This document shows positions 55,334 through 63,318 of a stretch of 64,000 nucleotides of DNA, in pieces. This DNA is from a virus: positions 1-64,000 of the IMG/VR virus record IMGVR_UViG_3300025128_000015. One strand, written 5' to 3'. The position numbers were made by a program, and so were the translations under genes. Each line of letters begins with the position of its first letter. Within the stretch, counting starts at the first letter, position 1. Below the pieces are notes generated by a model that saw only the letters and a list, made by a program, of their open reading frames with translations, had not been told where the DNA came from and did not search any database.

Positions 55334-56809
55334 ATGGCCAATACGATAAAAATATTTAATGCGGCACAAGCAGAAGAGATTGAAAGATATATAGCTCCTG
55401 CCACTCAGAACGCCAGCCTGTATGTGCAAAATATAATTGATTTTTCTCAAATGAATCATTATGGGCTCGTTGATCCTTCTGGACAAACAATAATGCCAAA
55501 GATTTCAAACGACACTTTGTTATCTTTAGAAAACGCGCAGACATACGGAATAAGTTCCGTTGGCGGATCTGCTCAGGTTTTAGATTTCGTTGCCGATGCA
55601 TTCACAGATATGTCAAGTTATTTACAATCGGTTAGATTCCGCGCAGGAGAGTATTCACCAAAAACTTACACAAACAAAGCCGGCCAAACCACAGAAACAT
55701 TCATACAAAGTTTGGTTCCCGCAAGCGGATATGTAAATCCTGTTTCGCTGCACAAAGAGCATGTTAATATTATCTATGACCATTTTATAAGATCGTATCT
55801 AGAGCAAAACAATCGTCACAAGAGCATAAACAATCATCGTGATTTTATAAAAATGTTTGTGAATTATGTTTTTAGCGACTTGTATACAGATATTGCCAAT
55901 ATAAACCTTTCTTCTCACATAAGAAGATCTCTCATTCCGATTGAGTGTAACGGTATTACAATTAAGCTGTCATCAATAGACACTAATGATCAAGCTGAAA
56001 TAGATGAGATATACTATGGAGATCCTAATTTTAACTTATATGCCTCTACTGTGCACAAGTTCGGATTTTATATTGATGAAAAGAGACCTTTTATGCTTGT
56101 GGCCAATCTACGCTCTAAGAAAATGAATGAATATGCTCAAAATAGAGGATCCTTCTTGGTAAATTCGACACCAGATTCAGGATATACTTCTGCTGGTGGA
56201 TTAGGGCATGTGCATGAATACGAGATAGACGCAAATGGAAATGGTAAAACAGGATATACCTCTGCTGGTCCTTATCACGAACACGTTATTGAAAGTTATT
56301 GTGTTAAACACGCGCAAATCGGAGCATCTCACAAGCACGAATTGCCAAGACAGGACGTGTTCACTAAGTATTATGTCCGGGCTCAAGAAAATGAACTCGA
56401 TCGACTCAAATCACTTCTTTTTAGAATGTACGATAGCTATATTAAGCAGAGTCCACAAAATATAGTCAATACTTTTCCTAAAGGAGCCCTCGTAAAGAAG
56501 GCGAGAATAAGAAAACCAGTAACCGAGAAAGATTTTGCTTTATCCATGTCAAATCAAAAATGGATTCGTCTGTATTTTGACCTTAAGATCAATGAAGAGA
56601 GAGTTATCTTAAAAAGAAGCAAGTATTTAAATATTGTCCGAAAAGCTCAAGAAATGTTGAAAGTCGCCACTGTACAAGAAGCGGTCGAGTATATCAATAA
56701 AGAAATCTATAAAAGGGTTCAAACTCTTGTGCAGGGTCCAAATGTAAACAGTAGCTACCATAATCTCCCTGGTAGCAATACTTTAAAGAAACTGTCTGAG
56801 TATTTTTAA
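55334..56809 (+). CDS. Hypothetical protein with internal HxH cluster
   Basis: 491 aa; GHVHEYEIDANGNG...YHEHVI...SHKHEL; last gene before the replication block. Confidence 0.6.
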   Translation: MANTIKIFNAAQAEEIERYIAPATQNASLYVQNIIDFSQMNHYGLVDPSGQTIMPKISNDTLLSLENAQTYGISSVGGSAQVLDFVADAFTDMSSYLQSVRFRAGEYSPKTYTNKAGQTTETFIQSLVPASGYVNPVSLHKEHVNIIYDHFIRSYLEQNNRHKSINNHRDFIKMFVNYVFSDLYTDIANINLSSHIRRSLIPIECNGITIKLSSIDTNDQAEIDEIYYGDPNFNLYASTVHKFGFYIDEKRPFMLVANLRSKKMNEYAQNRGSFLVNSTPDSGYTSAGGLGHVHEYEIDANGNGKTGYTSAGPYHEHVIESYCVKHAQIGASHKHELPRQDVFTKYYVRAQENELDRLKSLLFRMYDSYIKQSPQNIVNTFPKGALVKKARIRKPVTEKDFALSMSNQKWIRLYFDLKINEERVILKRSKYLNIVRKAQEMLKVATVQEAVEYINKEIYKRVQTLVQGPNVNSSYHNLPGSNTLKKLSEYF

Positions 56810-56837: not shown

Positions 56838-56854
56838 ACTTGAAGAGGTTTGTT

Positions 56855-58048
56855 TTGTATTTTCAGATTATTGATGATAAGACAGAATGCATTGGAATAT
56901 ATGCAAATGAAAAAATCTATTATGATGAAGTTCCATCATCGATCGCAGCAACCTGGAAATACGCGCCAATCCTCCGTGATCGTAATGATATAAAATACGC
57001 TAGCTTATATTGCGGAGATCACGACTTAACTCGTTCTTGCCCAGAACACTTGGAAAAGAGGCTAAGCAACATTTTAGATAGATTCCGAGCTTATCTGACA
57101 TCGTTCAAAGAAGCAAAGATATCTTTATATGATAACTGTTTTTATGATTTAGTTCCAGAGCGTTTTGTGTTAGAATATTGCGATGTTAAAAACGAGATTA
57201 CAAAACACATACTAGAAAACAACGACAAACCAAAAAACTACAATTTTCTCGTCTCACTCAGCAAAGTTTTGGAGGACATAAAATATTTGCCTTTAAATTT
57301 AGACTTTGCTGATTTTAACTTTGGATCAACAAGAGGTAGAATGTTCCACAAGAAGATCAAGCAAAAAGGACCAAACATTGTATATGATCTATTTGGTTCG
57401 AAGACTGGCCGCTTGACAACAAAGAAGAACAGCTTTCCAATACTGACTATGGACAAGAAATACAGAAGCATTATCAAACCAAAAAACGACTGTTTCTTAG
57501 AGCTTGATTTCAATTCAGCCGAGATCAGGACTTTTTTAGCCCTACAGGGACTTGAGCAGCCAAAACAAGATATCCATGCGTGGACAGGCAAAAATGTCTT
57601 TAAGGGGCAATTAACAAGGGATGAGGTGAAGAAAAAGTTCTTTGCATGGCTATATAATCCAGAAGCAAAAAATGATAAACTTGAAAGCATCTTCGACAAG
57701 AACAAGATTCTAGAGAAATATTGGAACGGATATAATGTCGAAACACCCTATAATAGAAAAATGGAAGCAGGAAAGAAGCACGCATTGAATTACTTAATTC
57801 AGAGTACAACCAGTGACTTGTTTTTACGACGAATGATCGACGTATGGCATCTTCTAAAAAATAGAACATCTCATGTGTCTTTCTGTATTCATGATTCTTT
57901 GGTGATAGACTTTTCTGTCGAAGATCGATCGCTCTTACAAGAAATTGTAGACAAGTTTTCAAATACAGAATTAGGATTCTTTAAGATCAACCTAAGTGCT
58001 GGCAAGAATTATGGTGAAATGAGGAAATTAGAATGGAAACAATCATAG
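56855..58048 (+). CDS. Minimal family A DNA polymerase-like protein
   Basis: TGRL, motif A LDFNSAEIR, motif B RDEVKKKFFAWLY, NYLIQSTTSD, motif C IHDSLV. The track start is 56840; TTG 56855 fits SD GAGG. Confidence 0.85.
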   Translation: MYFQIIDDKTECIGIYANEKIYYDEVPSSIAATWKYAPILRDRNDIKYASLYCGDHDLTRSCPEHLEKRLSNILDRFRAYLTSFKEAKISLYDNCFYDLVPERFVLEYCDVKNEITKHILENNDKPKNYNFLVSLSKVLEDIKYLPLNLDFADFNFGSTRGRMFHKKIKQKGPNIVYDLFGSKTGRLTTKKNSFPILTMDKKYRSIIKPKNDCFLELDFNSAEIRTFLALQGLEQPKQDIHAWTGKNVFKGQLTRDEVKKKFFAWLYNPEAKNDKLESIFDKNKILEKYWNGYNVETPYNRKMEAGKKHALNYLIQSTTSDLFLRRMIDVWHLLKNRTSHVSFCIHDSLVIDFSVEDRSLLQEIVDKFSNTELGFFKINLSAGKNYGEMRKLEWKQS

Positions 58049-58896
58049 GCTTAGGTTCTGCAGGGTGTAAAATAACAGAGAAGTTTGCTGAGTATCCGCA
58101 ATACGCTACATATAGAATTGATTCAGAGAAGCGACCTGGCCCAAAATTCAAACAACTCAAGAAATCTAGCTCACATGAAGAATACGAAAAGAACTGCCCT
58201 TCATTCAAGAGATTCTTTAAAGATGCGAAGCCACCGTATCTTTTTATTGTCTCAGGTGCAGGCGCGATATCTGGAGCCGCATTGAGAATCTTGGAACAAC
58301 TTAACTCTAAAGAAATATATGTCTTATATATAAGACCTGACGTATCTCTTCTTTCTGAAATGAAAAGAAAGCAAGAACGCGCTGGTTTTCACATATTACA
58401 ACAATTTGCGAGATCTGGGCTGTTGAAAAGAATCTTTCTTGTTAATAATTCCAATTTAGAGCAAATTATTCAAGACACTCCCGTGATAGGATATTACGAT
58501 AAATTAAATGAGTTGGTAGTTTCAGTAATTCATATGATTAACGTTTGCACTAATTCAGAACCAGTTTTAGAGACTTTCGATGATCCTGTTGAAGCTGCGA
58601 GGATATCAACTTTAGGAATTGTTGAGCTAGAAACTGGCCAAGAAACTTTATTTTTTGATTTAAAAATGCCTCGGGAAAAGGTATACTTCTATATGATTCA
58701 CGAAGACAAGTTGAAAAGCGACGGAGAGCTTCTGAAGAACATTACAGGACAAGTTCGTTCTCGTATGGAGGGCGGTAAAATACAAACATCTTTTGGTATA
58801 TATTCTACAGAATATCAGCAGAATTACGTTTATGTTTTAGCGCATACTTCTTTAATACAAAATGAACTTTTTTTCTTGTCTGACGAAGAATCGTGA
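58033..58896 (+). CDS. Divergent tubulin/FtsZ-superfamily protein
   Basis: N-terminal IIGLGSAGCKI (GxGxxG), signature-like SGAGAISG, LYIRPD, LVNN, and a C-terminal domain; 287 aa; overlaps the polymerase stop codon. Confidence 0.75.
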   Translation: METIIGLGSAGCKITEKFAEYPQYATYRIDSEKRPGPKFKQLKKSSSHEEYEKNCPSFKRFFKDAKPPYLFIVSGAGAISGAALRILEQLNSKEIYVLYIRPDVSLLSEMKRKQERAGFHILQQFARSGLLKRIFLVNNSNLEQIIQDTPVIGYYDKLNELVVSVIHMINVCTNSEPVLETFDDPVEAARISTLGIVELETGQETLFFDLKMPREKVYFYMIHEDKLKSDGELLKNITGQVRSRMEGGKIQTSFGIYSTEYQQNYVYVLAHTSLIQNELFFLSDEES

Positions 58897-58903: not shown

Positions 58904-58967
58904 ATACAATGATAACTAAACAGATACTTGGAATATTTGCCAAGTATACTATACAAGGAGAAATTTT

Positions 58968-59723
58968 ATGGCTATCAATATGGATAAAATGAAAGCAAGG
59001 CGAGAAGCCTTACAAAGCCGCGGCAGCGGTGGGAGCAACAAGGAAATGTTTTGGCGTCCACAAGACGGTGAGAGTACAATTCGAATTGTTCCAAGCGAAG
59101 ACGGTGATCCGTTTAAAGATTACTGGTTTCACTACAACGTAGGTAACAATCCTGGCTTTCTGAGTCCCAAGAAAAACTTTGGTGAGGAAGATCCTTTGGA
59201 TAATTTTGTCCGCTCCCTTTTCAAAGAAGGATCCGAGGACAGTATTAAAATGGCTAAGAGTTTAATGGCTCGTCAAAGGTTTTTTGCACCGGTTCTTGTT
59301 CGAGGAGAAGAAGAAAAAGGTGTAAGAGTCTGGGGATTTGGTAAAATGGCTTACCAAGAACTTTTGAATCTTGTTTTAAATCCGGATTATGGAGACATCA
59401 CAGATGTTGACGACGGTACTGATTTGGTAATTACTTATGGAAAGCCTCCAGGGGCACAATTTCCTCAAACCACAATCACACCACGTCGCAAGTCTTCACC
59501 GCTTACAAAGACAAAGAAGCAAACAAAAGATTATCTAGAGCAGGTACCTGATGTTACTACTCTTTTTGAGAAGAAATCACCTAACCAGGTACAAGAAATG
59601 CTAGACCAATTTTTGCTTGGAGAAGAAGACGCGGAAGAAGTGTCGACAGAGACTAAGAAGTACCAGAATAAATCTGATACTCCAACGTCTGTTGATCAAG
59701 CTTTTTCTGAGTTTGGACTCTAA
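58968..59723 (+). CDS. Single-stranded DNA-binding protein (gp32-like)
   Basis: FWRP..GESTIRIVP, PFKDYWFHY, RFFAPVLVRGEE, VWGFGK..YQ.LL, DYGDITD...G.DL; acidic C-terminal tail ending FSEFGL. Confidence 0.85.
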   Translation: MAINMDKMKARREALQSRGSGGSNKEMFWRPQDGESTIRIVPSEDGDPFKDYWFHYNVGNNPGFLSPKKNFGEEDPLDNFVRSLFKEGSEDSIKMAKSLMARQRFFAPVLVRGEEEKGVRVWGFGKMAYQELLNLVLNPDYGDITDVDDGTDLVITYGKPPGAQFPQTTITPRRKSSPLTKTKKQTKDYLEQVPDVTTLFEKKSPNQVQEMLDQFLLGEEDAEEVSTETKKYQNKSDTPTSVDQAFSEFGL

Positions 59724-59847: not shown

Positions 59848-60891
59848 ATGGTTTTACAAAAAGTACAAAATAATAGCGATATTAAGCCTGGGTTTAACGG
59901 GCAAGGCTATATCAATTTAAAAGATTATGATAAATTAAAGCCCATAGCTTTTAAACAAGCAGAATATTCACATCATGTCTTTGTTGATCTCAATGACATT
60001 GATACCGAAGATTCTCAATTCTGGAACATGGGTATTCGAGGAGAGGGTACTGATGAAGACGAAAGGATTGAGTCTTTCAGGGTTTCTTTTGGCCGCCATG
60101 GATGGATGACCTCATTCTGGTCACCTAGTATGGATGTTGAAGGAAATTGGCTAGGAGGACGTGGAAGGCTCCGTGCAGCAAAGAAGAACGGGGAAAGATG
60201 GGTACCCGTCGCCGTATATCGTAGAGCTGACATGTCAAAAAGAAACACTATTACAAACGGATTAATCGAGAATAAACACTTACCCCAATACGCCTCTACA
60301 TTTAAAGATTATATTGGCGCCGGCGTAGGACTCATAGCTGCCGGAGAGCTAAAAGCTGATGAAAAGTCCGTCCAGGTCTGGCTAAGAGAGGATGTTGGGA
60401 TCGATGATATATATGACAACTCTCGTGGCGGCGCCGTAACTCAGCTGGTCAAAAAAATCCTTGCAAAAGCAGCAGAGGATAAGTCTCTTGTCAGGGTACA
60501 ATCAGACAAGGCATGGAAAGACTGGATCGAATCTAAATTGGATCTGAAGAAGAACGAGTATGTGTTAATGAATACGAAAGACAACACTCGCTCTGTGAGG
60601 CTTTGGTGCAATCAGATATTGCCGGCAGTCGCAAATAAAAAAGATCCTGTCAATATTATTTTTTACGCTTCTGATTATAGTCCAAAAGAGTTGAGGAAGA
60701 ACTTAAAAGATAGAATTACCGAGCTTGATACGTTCTATAAGCAGTCCTATCAGCTTGTCAATAGTGGTATCACAGGCATTAATATTGATACGCCAGAAAA
60801 CAAGCACTATAAGATTCTAGGCGCCCTCCCTCAGATTGAAAAAGATCATGACATAGAAGGTAATCGTCTAGTAAAGATCGAGGAATATTAA
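59848..60891 (+). CDS. Protein with ParB/sulfiredoxin-like N-terminal domain
   Basis: RIESFRVSFGRHGW...DVEGNWLGGRGRLRAAKKNGERWVPVAV fits the ParB-N pattern (G..R..AA...G...VPV). Confidence 0.55.
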   Translation: MVLQKVQNNSDIKPGFNGQGYINLKDYDKLKPIAFKQAEYSHHVFVDLNDIDTEDSQFWNMGIRGEGTDEDERIESFRVSFGRHGWMTSFWSPSMDVEGNWLGGRGRLRAAKKNGERWVPVAVYRRADMSKRNTITNGLIENKHLPQYASTFKDYIGAGVGLIAAGELKADEKSVQVWLREDVGIDDIYDNSRGGAVTQLVKKILAKAAEDKSLVRVQSDKAWKDWIESKLDLKKNEYVLMNTKDNTRSVRLWCNQILPAVANKKDPVNIIFYASDYSPKELRKNLKDRITELDTFYKQSYQLVNSGITGINIDTPENKHYKILGALPQIEKDHDIEGNRLVKIEEY

Positions 60892-62217: not shown

Positions 62218-63318
62218 ATGGCAAGGAAAGCTAAAAAATTAGGAAAACTTAGTCTGGACGATATGCGAAACCTTATTAATCGTAAGGCAGGATTAGAAGT
62301 CGCCCACGATCTAAGAGAAGAGAACCCAACTGAGGTAAAAGAGTGGATCTCCACTGGATCAACTTGGTTGGACAACATTGTTTGCAGAGGAAAAAAGGCC
62401 GGCATTCCAGTAGGTAAAATTACTGAGATTGCTGGTCTAGAAGGAGCGGGTAAATCGTGGATGGCTGCAGAGATTGCTGCCAATGCTCAAAAAATGGGTA
62501 TTGACGTTGTTTACTTCGATTCAGAGTCTGCTATCGATCCAAGTTTATTGTCTAGGTTAGGCATCGACTTGGAAAGATTTCTTTATGTGCAAGCATCAAG
62601 TGTTGAATTTGTTTTAGAGACGATCGAAGAACTATTAGGCTCTAACGATAGTCAAATGTTATTTATCTGGGACTCTCTGGCTCTTACGCCGGCCATAACA
62701 GATGTAGAAGGTGATTTCAACCCTCAGTCATCGATGGCTGTGAAGGCTCGAATCTTGGCGAAAGGGATGTCAAAACTTACTGTCCCTATCGCCAACACAC
62801 AGTCAACATTTTTGGTATTAAACCAGCTTAAAACAAATATCGCTTCAAATCCTGCGCAGAGAATGGAGATTATGACAACACCGTATGTCACTCCAGGTGG
62901 AAAAGCTATGCACTATGCATATTCACTGCGCATTTGGTTAACCGGCCGAAAAGCTAAGTCTTCGTTTATTATGAATGGAGACGACCGCGTAGGATACCAA
63001 GTACAAGTTAAACTAGAAAAATCACGCTTTGGAACATCAGGACGAAGGTGTCATTTTAAAATTATGTTTGCTGGTGAAGTTGGTATTCGTAATGAAGAGA
63101 GTTGGCTCGAAGCTTTAATAGGCTCAGAAAACCTAACTCAATCAGGTGCGTGGTACACACTACACTTTGAAGATGGGACATCACAAAAATTTCAATCAAA
63201 AAATTGGCTTGAAAAATTAAAAAGTAGTGAACAGTTCCGTGAAAGAGTGTTAGAGTTAATGCATGAAGAGATTGTTTTGAAATACGAAAGAAAGACAGAA
63301 CAATCTTCTTCTACATAA
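62218..63318 (+). CDS. recA: RecA/UvsX-like recombinase
   Basis: GIPVGKITEIAGLEGAGKS (Walker A), YFDSESA, IWDSLA (Walker B), LNQL, PGGKA. Confidence 0.93.
   Translation: MARKAKKLGKLSLDDMRNLINRKAGLEVAHDLREENPTEVKEWISTGSTWLDNIVCRGKKAGIPVGKITEIAGLEGAGKSWMAAEIAANAQKMGIDVVYFDSESAIDPSLLSRLGIDLERFLYVQASSVEFVLETIEELLGSNDSQMLFIWDSLALTPAITDVEGDFNPQSSMAVKARILAKGMSKLTVPIANTQSTFLVLNQLKTNIASNPAQRMEIMTTPYVTPGGKAMHYAYSLRIWLTGRKAKSSFIMNGDDRVGYQVQVKLEKSRFGTSGRRCHFKIMFAGEVGIRNEESWLEALIGSENLTQSGAWYTLHFEDGTSQKFQSKNWLEKLKSSEQFRERVLELMHEEIVLKYERKTEQSSST

Follow-up and report, generated by a model that had tools for sequence, protein, structure and literature searches.

We analyzed a window of 64,000 nucleotides (nt), positions 1 to 64,000 of the IMG/VR virus record IMGVR_UViG_3300025128_000015, which is part of a phage genome of 189,594 bp rated 100% complete, and we describe here a gene in its replication region that encodes a tubulin-like protein of 287 amino acids (aa). 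Judged from its predicted fold, the protein is a complete two-domain member of the tubulin/FtsZ superfamily, and it founds a new phage-specific family of this known superfamily with a core of about 280 residues. Fold, alignment, and conservation showed a minimal core in which the nucleotide pocket is kept and the T3 glycines, the T7 motif, and the C-terminal tail are lost. The gene was first pointed out in an earlier note made from the letters of the window alone, which listed several tubulin-like motifs in an open reading frame (ORF):
58033 to 58896, plus strand: gene of the minimal tubulin/FtsZ-fold protein (P0001), an ORF of 287 aa

This ORF and all the motifs quoted were found in place (IIGLGSAG at residues 4-11, SGAGAISG at 74-81, YIRPD at 99-103, VNN at 137-139, and NSEPVLETFDD at 174-184). 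The ORF is a real, conserved gene and not a chance ORF, since it has more than 355 homologues, 890 cluster representatives, and at least 591 intact IMG/VR loci.

An AlphaFold2 model of the protein was built from an alignment of 38 sequences and reached a predicted local distance difference test value (pLDDT) of 90.7 and a predicted template modeling score (pTM) of 0.89. In the model, strands and helices follow each other in the order of FtsZ, from S1-H1 to S6-H6 over a long helix H7 and a coil of 17 residues to a beta-rich C-terminal domain. The predicted architecture is the two-domain one of the superfamily, comprising a Rossmann-like nucleotide-binding domain, the core helix H7, and a four-stranded C-terminal domain. 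With Foldseek, the model matched FtsZ, TubZ, CetZ, and tubulins at template modeling (TM) scores of 0.62-0.73 and E values of about 1e-12 (FtsZ alone: 0.70-0.73 and 1e-12). An exhaustive VIA-align search of 48,161 representative PDB chains, which was independent of Foldseek, placed only members of the tubulin/FtsZ superfamily in its top 17 rows, with Z scores of 13.9-25.0. The best scores were obtained with CetZ (25.0 and 24.1), Bacillus TubZ (23.1 and 21.5), and FtsZ (21.5), followed by eukaryotic, Asgard, and Btub tubulins (19-21), TubZ of phage c-st (19.4), and PhuZ (16.5-16.7); the value of 13.9 belonged to a last FtsZ entry that was poorly aligned, with a root-mean-square deviation (rmsd) of 17.9 Å. 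At Z scores of 19-25, 256-276 of the 287 residues aligned with CetZ, TubZ, FtsZ, and tubulin. The next fold class were short-chain/Rossmann dehydrogenases with Z scores of at most 10.5, which matched the N-terminal domain only. Because the tubulin/FtsZ proteins match the whole model and the Rossmann dehydrogenases only its N-terminal domain, full membership in the superfamily is indicated by the model. The identity to every characterized family was about equally low (11-16%). The tubulin-like reading of the motifs in the earlier note was thus borne out by the predicted fold and by the profile alignment described below, and the structure search that it had suggested recovered the tubulin Rossmann fold.

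Searches with P0001 alone found nothing that names it in Pfam, PHROGs, NCBIfam, or the PDB sequences. No Pfam match was obtained at E ≤ 0.1, and a tblastn search of 50,697 GenBank phage records returned nothing useful. The curated thresholds of Pfam Tubulin (PF00091) and FtsZ_C were not reached; a weak sub-threshold match to PF00091 was seen in 10 of 124 family members (best E value 5.6e-4), and one member matched NCBIfam TIGR00065 ftsZ at 0.01, with 15 bits compared to a cut-off of 295. One sister cluster in the ESM Atlas had automatically been named 'Tubulin/FtsZ GTPase domain-containing', so that the link to the superfamily is not wholly new to databases. When the family profile was compared by hhalign with an FtsZ profile derived from E. 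coli ftsZ and seven bacterial ftsZ genes from mislabelled 'phage' records, residues 2-169 were aligned with an E value of 2.9e-4. This alignment brought into register the T1 loop (GLGxAG/GVGGGG), the T4 loop (G-x-G-x-I-S-G/GGGTGTG), N139 and N165, Y155 and F182, N159 and N186, and E160 and D187, and it placed [H/P]48-E49 on P74-E75 of FtsZ. At the level of sequence, these results point weakly and consistently to a kinship with FtsZ. As a side observation, the 'phage' records that match E. coli FtsZ (OR846604.1, OR844988.1, MT835570.1, CAKLQH020000013.1, and others; L248-L254) nearly all carry an ordinary bacterial ftsZ with 42-55% identity, two of them near 99%; six of the seven examined are flagged UNVERIFIED, and these records look like bacterial DNA filed as phage.

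Conservation was evaluated over 258 full-length family members, down to about 30% identity. The elements concerned are located as follows:
58042 to 58071, plus strand: T1-type glycine loop IIGLGSAGCK, residues 4-13, aligned by hhalign to FtsZ GVGGGGGN
58177 to 58188, plus strand: family-specific E49-x-Y51-E52 at the end of the shortened T3 loop (E49 95%, Y51 90%, E52 92% conserved)
58252 to 58275, plus strand: degenerate T4 'tubulin signature' loop SGAGAISG, aligned by hhalign to FtsZ GGGTGTG
58399 to 58419, plus strand: Q123-x3-R127-S128-G (QQFARSG; consensus QEYARSG) at the end of helix H5, from family conservation
58447 to 58512, plus strand: equivalents of the sugar/base contacts, N139 (FtsZ N165), Y155 (F182), N159 (N186), and E160 (D187), from hhalign
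58552 to 58602, plus strand: coil equivalent to T7/H8, residues 174-190, between H7 (154-173) and S7 (191-197), from the AlphaFold2 secondary structure

Both glycine-rich loops that characterize the phosphate site of the superfamily are present. In the T1 loop, G6, G8, and G11 are conserved in 93, 100, and 91% of the members; in the T4 loop, G75, G77, S80, and G81 reach 94, 72, 81, and 74%, and the strict signature GGGTG[ST]G has no letter-for-letter match, SGAGAISG standing in its place. The sugar/base contacts of the superfamily are likewise found, with N139 in 90% and N159 in 91% of the members, an aromatic residue at position 155 in about 80%, and an acidic one at position 160 in 66%. Overall, the pocket residues are 72-100% conserved. 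The most conserved family-specific motif is formed by Q123 (99%), R127 (98%), and S128 (97%), and it has no counterpart in FtsZ in the hhalign alignment. The T7 motif NxDxx[DE] is absent from the coil 174-190 of P0001 and throughout the family, which confirms for all members what the earlier note had reported when it failed to find a GxxNxD loop there; the FtsZ alignment stops before this coil. R190 within the coil is conserved in 88% of the members, and an acidic residue occurs at position 184 or 187 in 82%. In P0001 itself, the coil contains E176, E180, D183, D184, and E187, i.e., an acid is available and its place is not fixed. Since the phosphate loops and base contacts are conserved and the T3 glycines, the T7 motif, and the tail are lost, the nucleotide pocket looks intact, whereas what links assembly to hydrolysis in known members looks missing or rewritten.

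The family is viral and marine; source tags, Tara among them, indicate an oceanic origin. The more than 355 homologues were obtained at E ≤ 1e-3, with an identity of 42-95% among the 120 matches listed. A HMMER scan of 1.84 billion representatives yielded the 890 clusters (50% identity) at E ≤ 1e-3, of which 341 reached E ≤ 1e-30, and the matched cluster members nearly all had a length of 265-300 residues. Relatives with intact genes are encoded on the at least 591 IMG/VR contigs mentioned above. In 185,579 species genomes, only a single match was found, on a scaffold of a metagenome-assembled genome (MAG) joined by runs of N. This is L164 (CP070664.1, 2245213-2258046), from a MAG 'chromosome' assigned to candidate division WOR-3, in which a block of polymerase, tubulin-like, single-stranded DNA-binding protein (SSB), and UvsX genes lies beside a run of 200 N. 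The block is most likely a phage contig that was binned and concatenated into the MAG, and the match therefore provides no evidence on the host; with this as the sole match, nothing indicates that a prophage or plasmid state exists.

The genes surrounding the tubulin-like gene belong to a replication module:
56840 to 58048, plus strand: upstream gene for a small divergent family-A polymerase of the divPolA1 type, 402 aa (Pfam DNA_pol_A 1.7e-12)
58021 to 58025, plus strand: Shine-Dalgarno-like GAGGA, 7 nt upstream of the ATG and within the polymerase gene, read from the sequence
58033 to 58048, plus strand: overlap of the divPolA1 stop and the tubulin-like start, 16 nt, an arrangement of the translational-coupling type, read from the sequence
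58968 to 59723, plus strand: downstream gene for a gp32-like SSB (Pfam gp32 3e-12; phrog_1192 6e-28)
62218 to 63318, plus strand: UvsX/RecA-like recombinase, a conserved distal member of the module (Pfam RecA 7e-37; phrog_97 2e-57)

As the earlier note had observed, the ATG of the tubulin-like gene lies inside the final codons of the polymerase ORF, and the SSB gene comes next. The overlap measures 16 nt, and the spacer before the SSB gene 71 nt. This spacer contains an inverted repeat with an 8-bp stem (ATACTTGG...CCAAGTAT, 58924-58947) just upstream of the ribosome-binding site of the SSB gene, which could be a translational operator of the gp32-autoregulation type or a weak terminator. Three variable genes separate the SSB gene from the UvsX/RecA-like gene in the window. 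One ORF in this region (59848-60891, 347 aa), described as 'ParB-like', was considered as an adaptor and rejected, because it matches no ParB family in Pfam or NCBIfam and has no homologue in 80 related loci. It gave no other significant match in these two databases and looks like a variable insert that is coupled translationally to a gene for a Dam-like methylase.

The conservation of this arrangement was determined in 80 IMG/VR loci anchored on the tubulin-like gene (42-92% identity). The SSB gene was located downstream in 79 of the 80 loci, UvsX in 61, and a polymerase gene upstream in all 70 loci with enough upstream sequence. The order divPolA1 - tubulin-like gene - SSB - UvsX was kept in all of the 80 loci with room for it. 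Viewed from the SSB gene, the tubulin-like gene was immediately upstream in 65 of 66 loci. Thus, the survey established the conserved linkage to the polymerase and SSB genes for which the earlier note had asked. The order divPolA1 - tubulin-like gene - SSB was also kept in two of the most divergent members listed, and adjacency persists down to about 30% identity. The polymerase stop and the tubulin-like start overlapped by 1-16 nt in 44 of the 70 loci; of the 70, 23 carried at least 283 nt of inserted sequence at this junction, often a MazG-like ORF of about 100 aa. Within the same loci, identity was 45% for the tubulin-like protein, 48% for divPolA1, 65% for SSB, and 75% for UvsX. Fused polymerase-tubulin genes or longer forms were not found, which is weak evidence. 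The insert ORF of about 100 aa, starting with K-L-V-R-D-R-I-P-E-I-I, occurs between divPolA1 and the tubulin-like gene in about one fifth of the related loci (L007:5684-5998, L015:792-1100, L031:5690-5998, L049:1797-2114, and about 10 other loci), and its product presumably resembles MazG/PRA-PH-like NTP pyrophosphohydrolases. Some relatives have an ORF of about 86-96 aa in the gap between the tubulin-like gene and the SSB gene (L018:3516-3779, L026:3013-3288, L038:6839-7126, L061:1894-2154, and others), with an N-terminal hydrophobic helix and a four-cysteine pattern (C-E-V-x-C ... C-Q-C).

The phage has a gp23-type capsid, which among cultured phages is most closely related to those of Flavobacterium phage immuto, Microcystis phage Mel-JY01, and Rhodothermus phage RM378. 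The genome also encodes TerL, a portal protein, DnaB, a class II-like ribonucleotide reductase (RNR), a full DnaE-type Pol III alpha with PHP, NTPase, finger, and HhH domains, GroEL, inosine monophosphate dehydrogenase (IMPDH)/GMP reductase, adenylosuccinate synthetase, the UV endonuclease UvdE, and a sigma-70-like factor. The following genes lie beyond the window:
L082:9311-12745: DnaE
L082:800-2170: DnaB
L083:52-1632: GroEL
L082:13817-14902: IMPDH/GMP reductase
L083:5130-6152: adenylosuccinate synthetase
L083:8134-9102: UvdE
L084:1925-2884: sigma-70-like factor

As both a DnaE-type Pol III alpha and divPolA1 are present, the genome has two polymerases of different families. The label 'T4-like myovirus' used in the earlier note fits the gp23-type capsid, gp32, and UvsX, but the phage is only loosely T4-like and is a member of an immuto-like group with genomes of 155-190 kb. 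The DNA_pol_A match of the upstream polymerase covers motif C only, and the only phage matches in a tblastn search with this polymerase were the 'DNA polymerase family A' genes of Flavobacterium phage immuto. The module has the same order as in immuto and, with its size of 189.6 kb and the presence of DnaE, DnaB, RNR, and GroEL, the genome belongs to the divPolA1 type. The divPolA1 enzymes were described as divergent PolA proteins with a truncated thumb and an inactive exonuclease, which head a module of PolA, SSB, RecA, 5′-3′ exonuclease, DnaB, and RNR; they were known from 14 listed genomes, and the immuto-like phages of 155-190 kb also carry a regular polymerase next to GroEL/GroES (Virol J 2024 21:200, PMC11348598). 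Tubulin or FtsZ is not mentioned in that paper (PMC11348598). The marine relatives of divPolA1 found here comprise hundreds of IMG/VR contigs.

None of 80 immuto-like divPolA1 loci contained a member of the tubulin-like family, and the gene is missing in the cultured and freshwater relatives that carry divPolA1, i.e., the immuto-like phages. In cultured phage immuto, its slot is occupied by two unrelated small ORFs. These two ORFs and a 428-aa ORF upstream of the SSB gene of Mel-JY01 were tried as homologues and proved unrelated by comparison with the family profile. Because these relatives have divPolA1 without the gene, divPolA1 does not generally need the tubulin-like protein. The tubulin-like gene is the hallmark of one large marine clade and not an obligatory partner of divPolA1.

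Compared to known members of the superfamily, the best structural match is CetZ (PDB 3zid and 4b45), which shares the same two-domain core (rmsd 2.7-2.8 Å over 256-263 residues). CetZ is an archaeal cell-shape protein of 330-390 aa in which the T4 signature is canonical and both a T7 loop and a C-terminal extension are present, and identity is 14%; the phage protein, in contrast, is viral, has 287 aa, a truncated T3, and neither T7 motif nor tail, and is encoded in a replication operon. A likeness to TubZ of the type found on the Bacillus plasmids pBtoxis/pXO1 (PDB 2xka, 4ei7, 3m8k; Z 23.1-23.5) and in Clostridium phage c-st (4xcq, Z 19.4) is that it, too, is a DNA-associated tubulin-fold protein of mobile elements. 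TubZ/RepX proteins were first found as plasmid replication factors. TubZ works with TubR and the centromere tubC and needs a flexible C-terminal tail (PMC5322520). In the phage, TubR, tail, and T7 motif are missing and the upstream gene encodes a DNA polymerase instead. No TubR-like adaptor gene was found next to the tubulin-like gene, the neighbors being divPolA1, which overlaps its start, and SSB downstream, and the inserts in relatives encoding MazG-like or small membrane proteins; the same conclusion had been drawn in the earlier note. FtsZ is the sole family with support at the sequence level (hhalign E 2.9e-4; Z 21.5-23), but T3 GLGAG, T7 NxDxxD, the linker, and the C-terminal peptide of FtsZ are missing and identity is 11-16%. 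PhuZ (PDB 3rb8, 3zbq, 9pm9) is likewise a phage-encoded tubulin-fold protein of about 300 aa, and it is the weakest match of the superfamily apart from the poorly aligned FtsZ entry (Z 16.5-16.7; TM 0.5-0.57 in BFVD). PhuZ assembles via a long acidic C-terminal tail and occurs together with chimallin and phage RNA polymerases in the nucleus-forming Chimalliviridae. The present protein has no tail, and its phage combines a gp23-type capsid with a sigma-70-like factor, DnaE, and DnaB; chimallin itself was not searched for. The best viral match in BFVD was A0A6J5RW92, an 'FtsZ Cell division GTPase' of an uncultured Caudovirales phage (452 aa, TM 0.78, E 6e-13), which is 165 residues longer and 16% identical. 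The suggestion of the earlier note that the protein represents a lineage apart from PhuZ and TubZ agrees with these data, as it is nested in neither: PhuZ scores low, and TubR and the tail of TubZ are lacking.

With respect to function, we tentatively propose, at a little short of an even chance, that the tubulin-like protein binds nucleotide, self-associates, and scaffolds the replication zone in a phage without a protein nucleus. It would be made from the operon of divPolA1, gp32-like SSB, and UvsX, usually by translational coupling to divPolA1, and would bind GTP or another purine nucleotide. Head-to-tail self-association as in other members of the superfamily might then take place without the usual T7-driven hydrolysis and could lead to filaments or oligomers that are static or turn over slowly. 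These would organize or position the replicating phage DNA and the SSB/recombinase machinery in the infected cell, the net effect being a replication-zone scaffold. PhuZ and TubZ, which position or move phage or plasmid DNA, provide a precedent. Several observations speak against this proposal. The T3 loop (GxGxG), which is the gamma-phosphate sensor, has lost its GLGAG by a gap of 8 residues relative to FtsZ in the hhalign alignment, after which the P-E alone survives, as [H/P]48-E49. In polymerizing members, T7 completes the active site of the neighboring subunit and is one of the best conserved parts; in the coil 174-190 of the family no position is more than 58% acidic, and the bottom face, which has to enter the pocket of the next subunit, is the least conserved one. 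The C-terminal tail is almost nil, with a median of 5 residues beyond the last strand, whereas in FtsZ, TubZ, and PhuZ such tails serve assembly or the binding of adaptors. In the related loci, no gene for an adaptor or a centromere-binding protein is conserved beside the tubulin-like gene. Finally, the whole region keeps its gene order, the upstream virion-like genes (for a 1237-aa protein and a variable 491-aa protein) included, so that synteny alone is weak evidence of contact and may reflect vertical inheritance rather than functional coupling.

Other readings do without filaments. In one of them, which we regard as rather unlikely, the tubulin fold was recruited as a nucleotide-dependent, non-cytomotive part of the replisome or recombination machinery, with the T7 acid replaced and with divPolA1, SSB, or UvsX rather than a spindle as the site of action. 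The near-invariant residues Q123, R127, and S128 at the end of H5 are a candidate for the replacement of the T7 acid, which acts in trans. Unlikely too, though the main rival of the proposal, is that the protein is a non-polymerizing accessory subunit of divPolA1 itself, i.e., a nucleotide-dependent clamp, processivity, or loading factor kept at a fixed ratio by coupling, in which the tubulin fold would compensate for the truncated thumb and the dead exonuclease of the polymerase (PMC11348598). The short overlaps in 44 of 70 loci, the adjacency kept down to about 30% identity, and the rate of evolution close to that of divPolA1 and faster than that of SSB and UvsX would fit such a subunit, as would a family that lacks the T7 motif and the tail needed by filament formers; Q123/R127/S128 and E49/Y51/E52 could form a surface for the partner. 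However, all 80 immuto-like loci and cultured immuto have divPolA1 and lack the tubulin-like protein, other genes such as the MazG-like ORF separate the pair in 23 of 70 marine loci, and, as weak evidence, the two genes were never found fused.

We regard it as improbable that the protein serves host takeover by imitating FtsZ in a defective form, so that FtsZ filaments of the host are capped or poisoned and division is blocked. Many phages inhibit FtsZ, the combination of a conserved pocket (top) face with a degenerate T7 (bottom) face is the pattern of a chain terminator, and the membrane-tether tail is absent; but the protein is no closer to FtsZ (11-16% identity) than to CetZ, TubZ, or tubulin, the truncated T3 loop is part of the longitudinal interface of FtsZ, the gene is located in the replication operon and not among small early host-takeover genes, and the family varies down to about 30% identity, although its supposed target is very conserved. 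It is very improbable that the protein is a type III partition motor like TubZ, by which the phage genome would be segregated as a plasmid-like prophage or in the course of pseudolysogeny. In spite of the high similarity to plasmid TubZ (Z 23.1 over 275 aligned residues) and the precedent of Clostridium phage c-st (Z 19.4), there is no TubR-like gene upstream, no adaptor-binding tail, and no conserved small DNA-binding neighbor, the 'ParB-like' neighbor neither matches a ParB family nor occurs in any of the 80 related loci, and the only match in the species genomes is the N-joined MAG scaffold. We give next to no credence to a Rossmann-type NAD(P)- or nucleotide-binding enzyme that is not a tubulin relative in function and whose GxGxxG mimics the T1 loop. 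Such an enzyme is suggested by weak matches of 17 of 124 members to Pfam TrkA_N (best E value 3.9e-6) and by a match of the family profile to KtrA among the PDB sequences (E 4e-4, over the first about 87 profile positions). These matches cover only the first beta-alpha-beta unit, whereas the whole model including H7 and the C-terminal domain scores Z 19-25 with tubulin/FtsZ compared to at most 10.5 with dehydrogenases, and equivalents of T4, N165, F182, and N186 are in register with FtsZ. On the basis of the whole-fold VIA-align result, an identity as KtrA/TrkA was rejected.

Upstream of the polymerase gene, the variable 491-aa ORF (55334-56809) had no Pfam or PHROGs family and no ESM Atlas match, with a mean column identity of 25% among relatives. 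Its AlphaFold2 model (pLDDT 71) resembled LAS-type peptidases (VanXY, LdcB, Hedgehog N-domain, Ply500; Z 5-6.4) weakly but uniformly over about residues 40-270. On this model, the ORF probably belongs to the virion or lysis side and may encode a virion-associated cell-wall peptidase that closes the tail module.

Neither the family nor its anatomy or linkage was described in any paper that we found, and a 2023 survey of the tubulin/FtsZ superfamily makes no mention of phages or viruses (PMC9871819). The family described here is a further lineage of phage tubulins, which is abundant and ocean-wide, undetected by Pfam, PHROGs, and NCBIfam, and absent from cultured phages. It is the third, since two have been characterized, PhuZ in the phage nucleus and TubZ in plasmid-like partition via TubR. 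To our knowledge, its 287-aa protein is close to the smallest complete tubulin/FtsZ core known. Because T3, T7, and the tail, which are thought to drive assembly dynamics, are all missing, it offers a natural test of the bare fold. Its fixed place in the replication operon of phages that form no nucleus raises the question of whether ordinary large phages organize replication with a cytoskeletal protein. If the protein were a cofactor of the polymerase or the recombinase, this would be a new task for the tubulin fold, and if it were a non-cytomotive component of the replisome or recombination machinery, it would add a functional class to the superfamily and a novel type of accessory factor to those known in replication.

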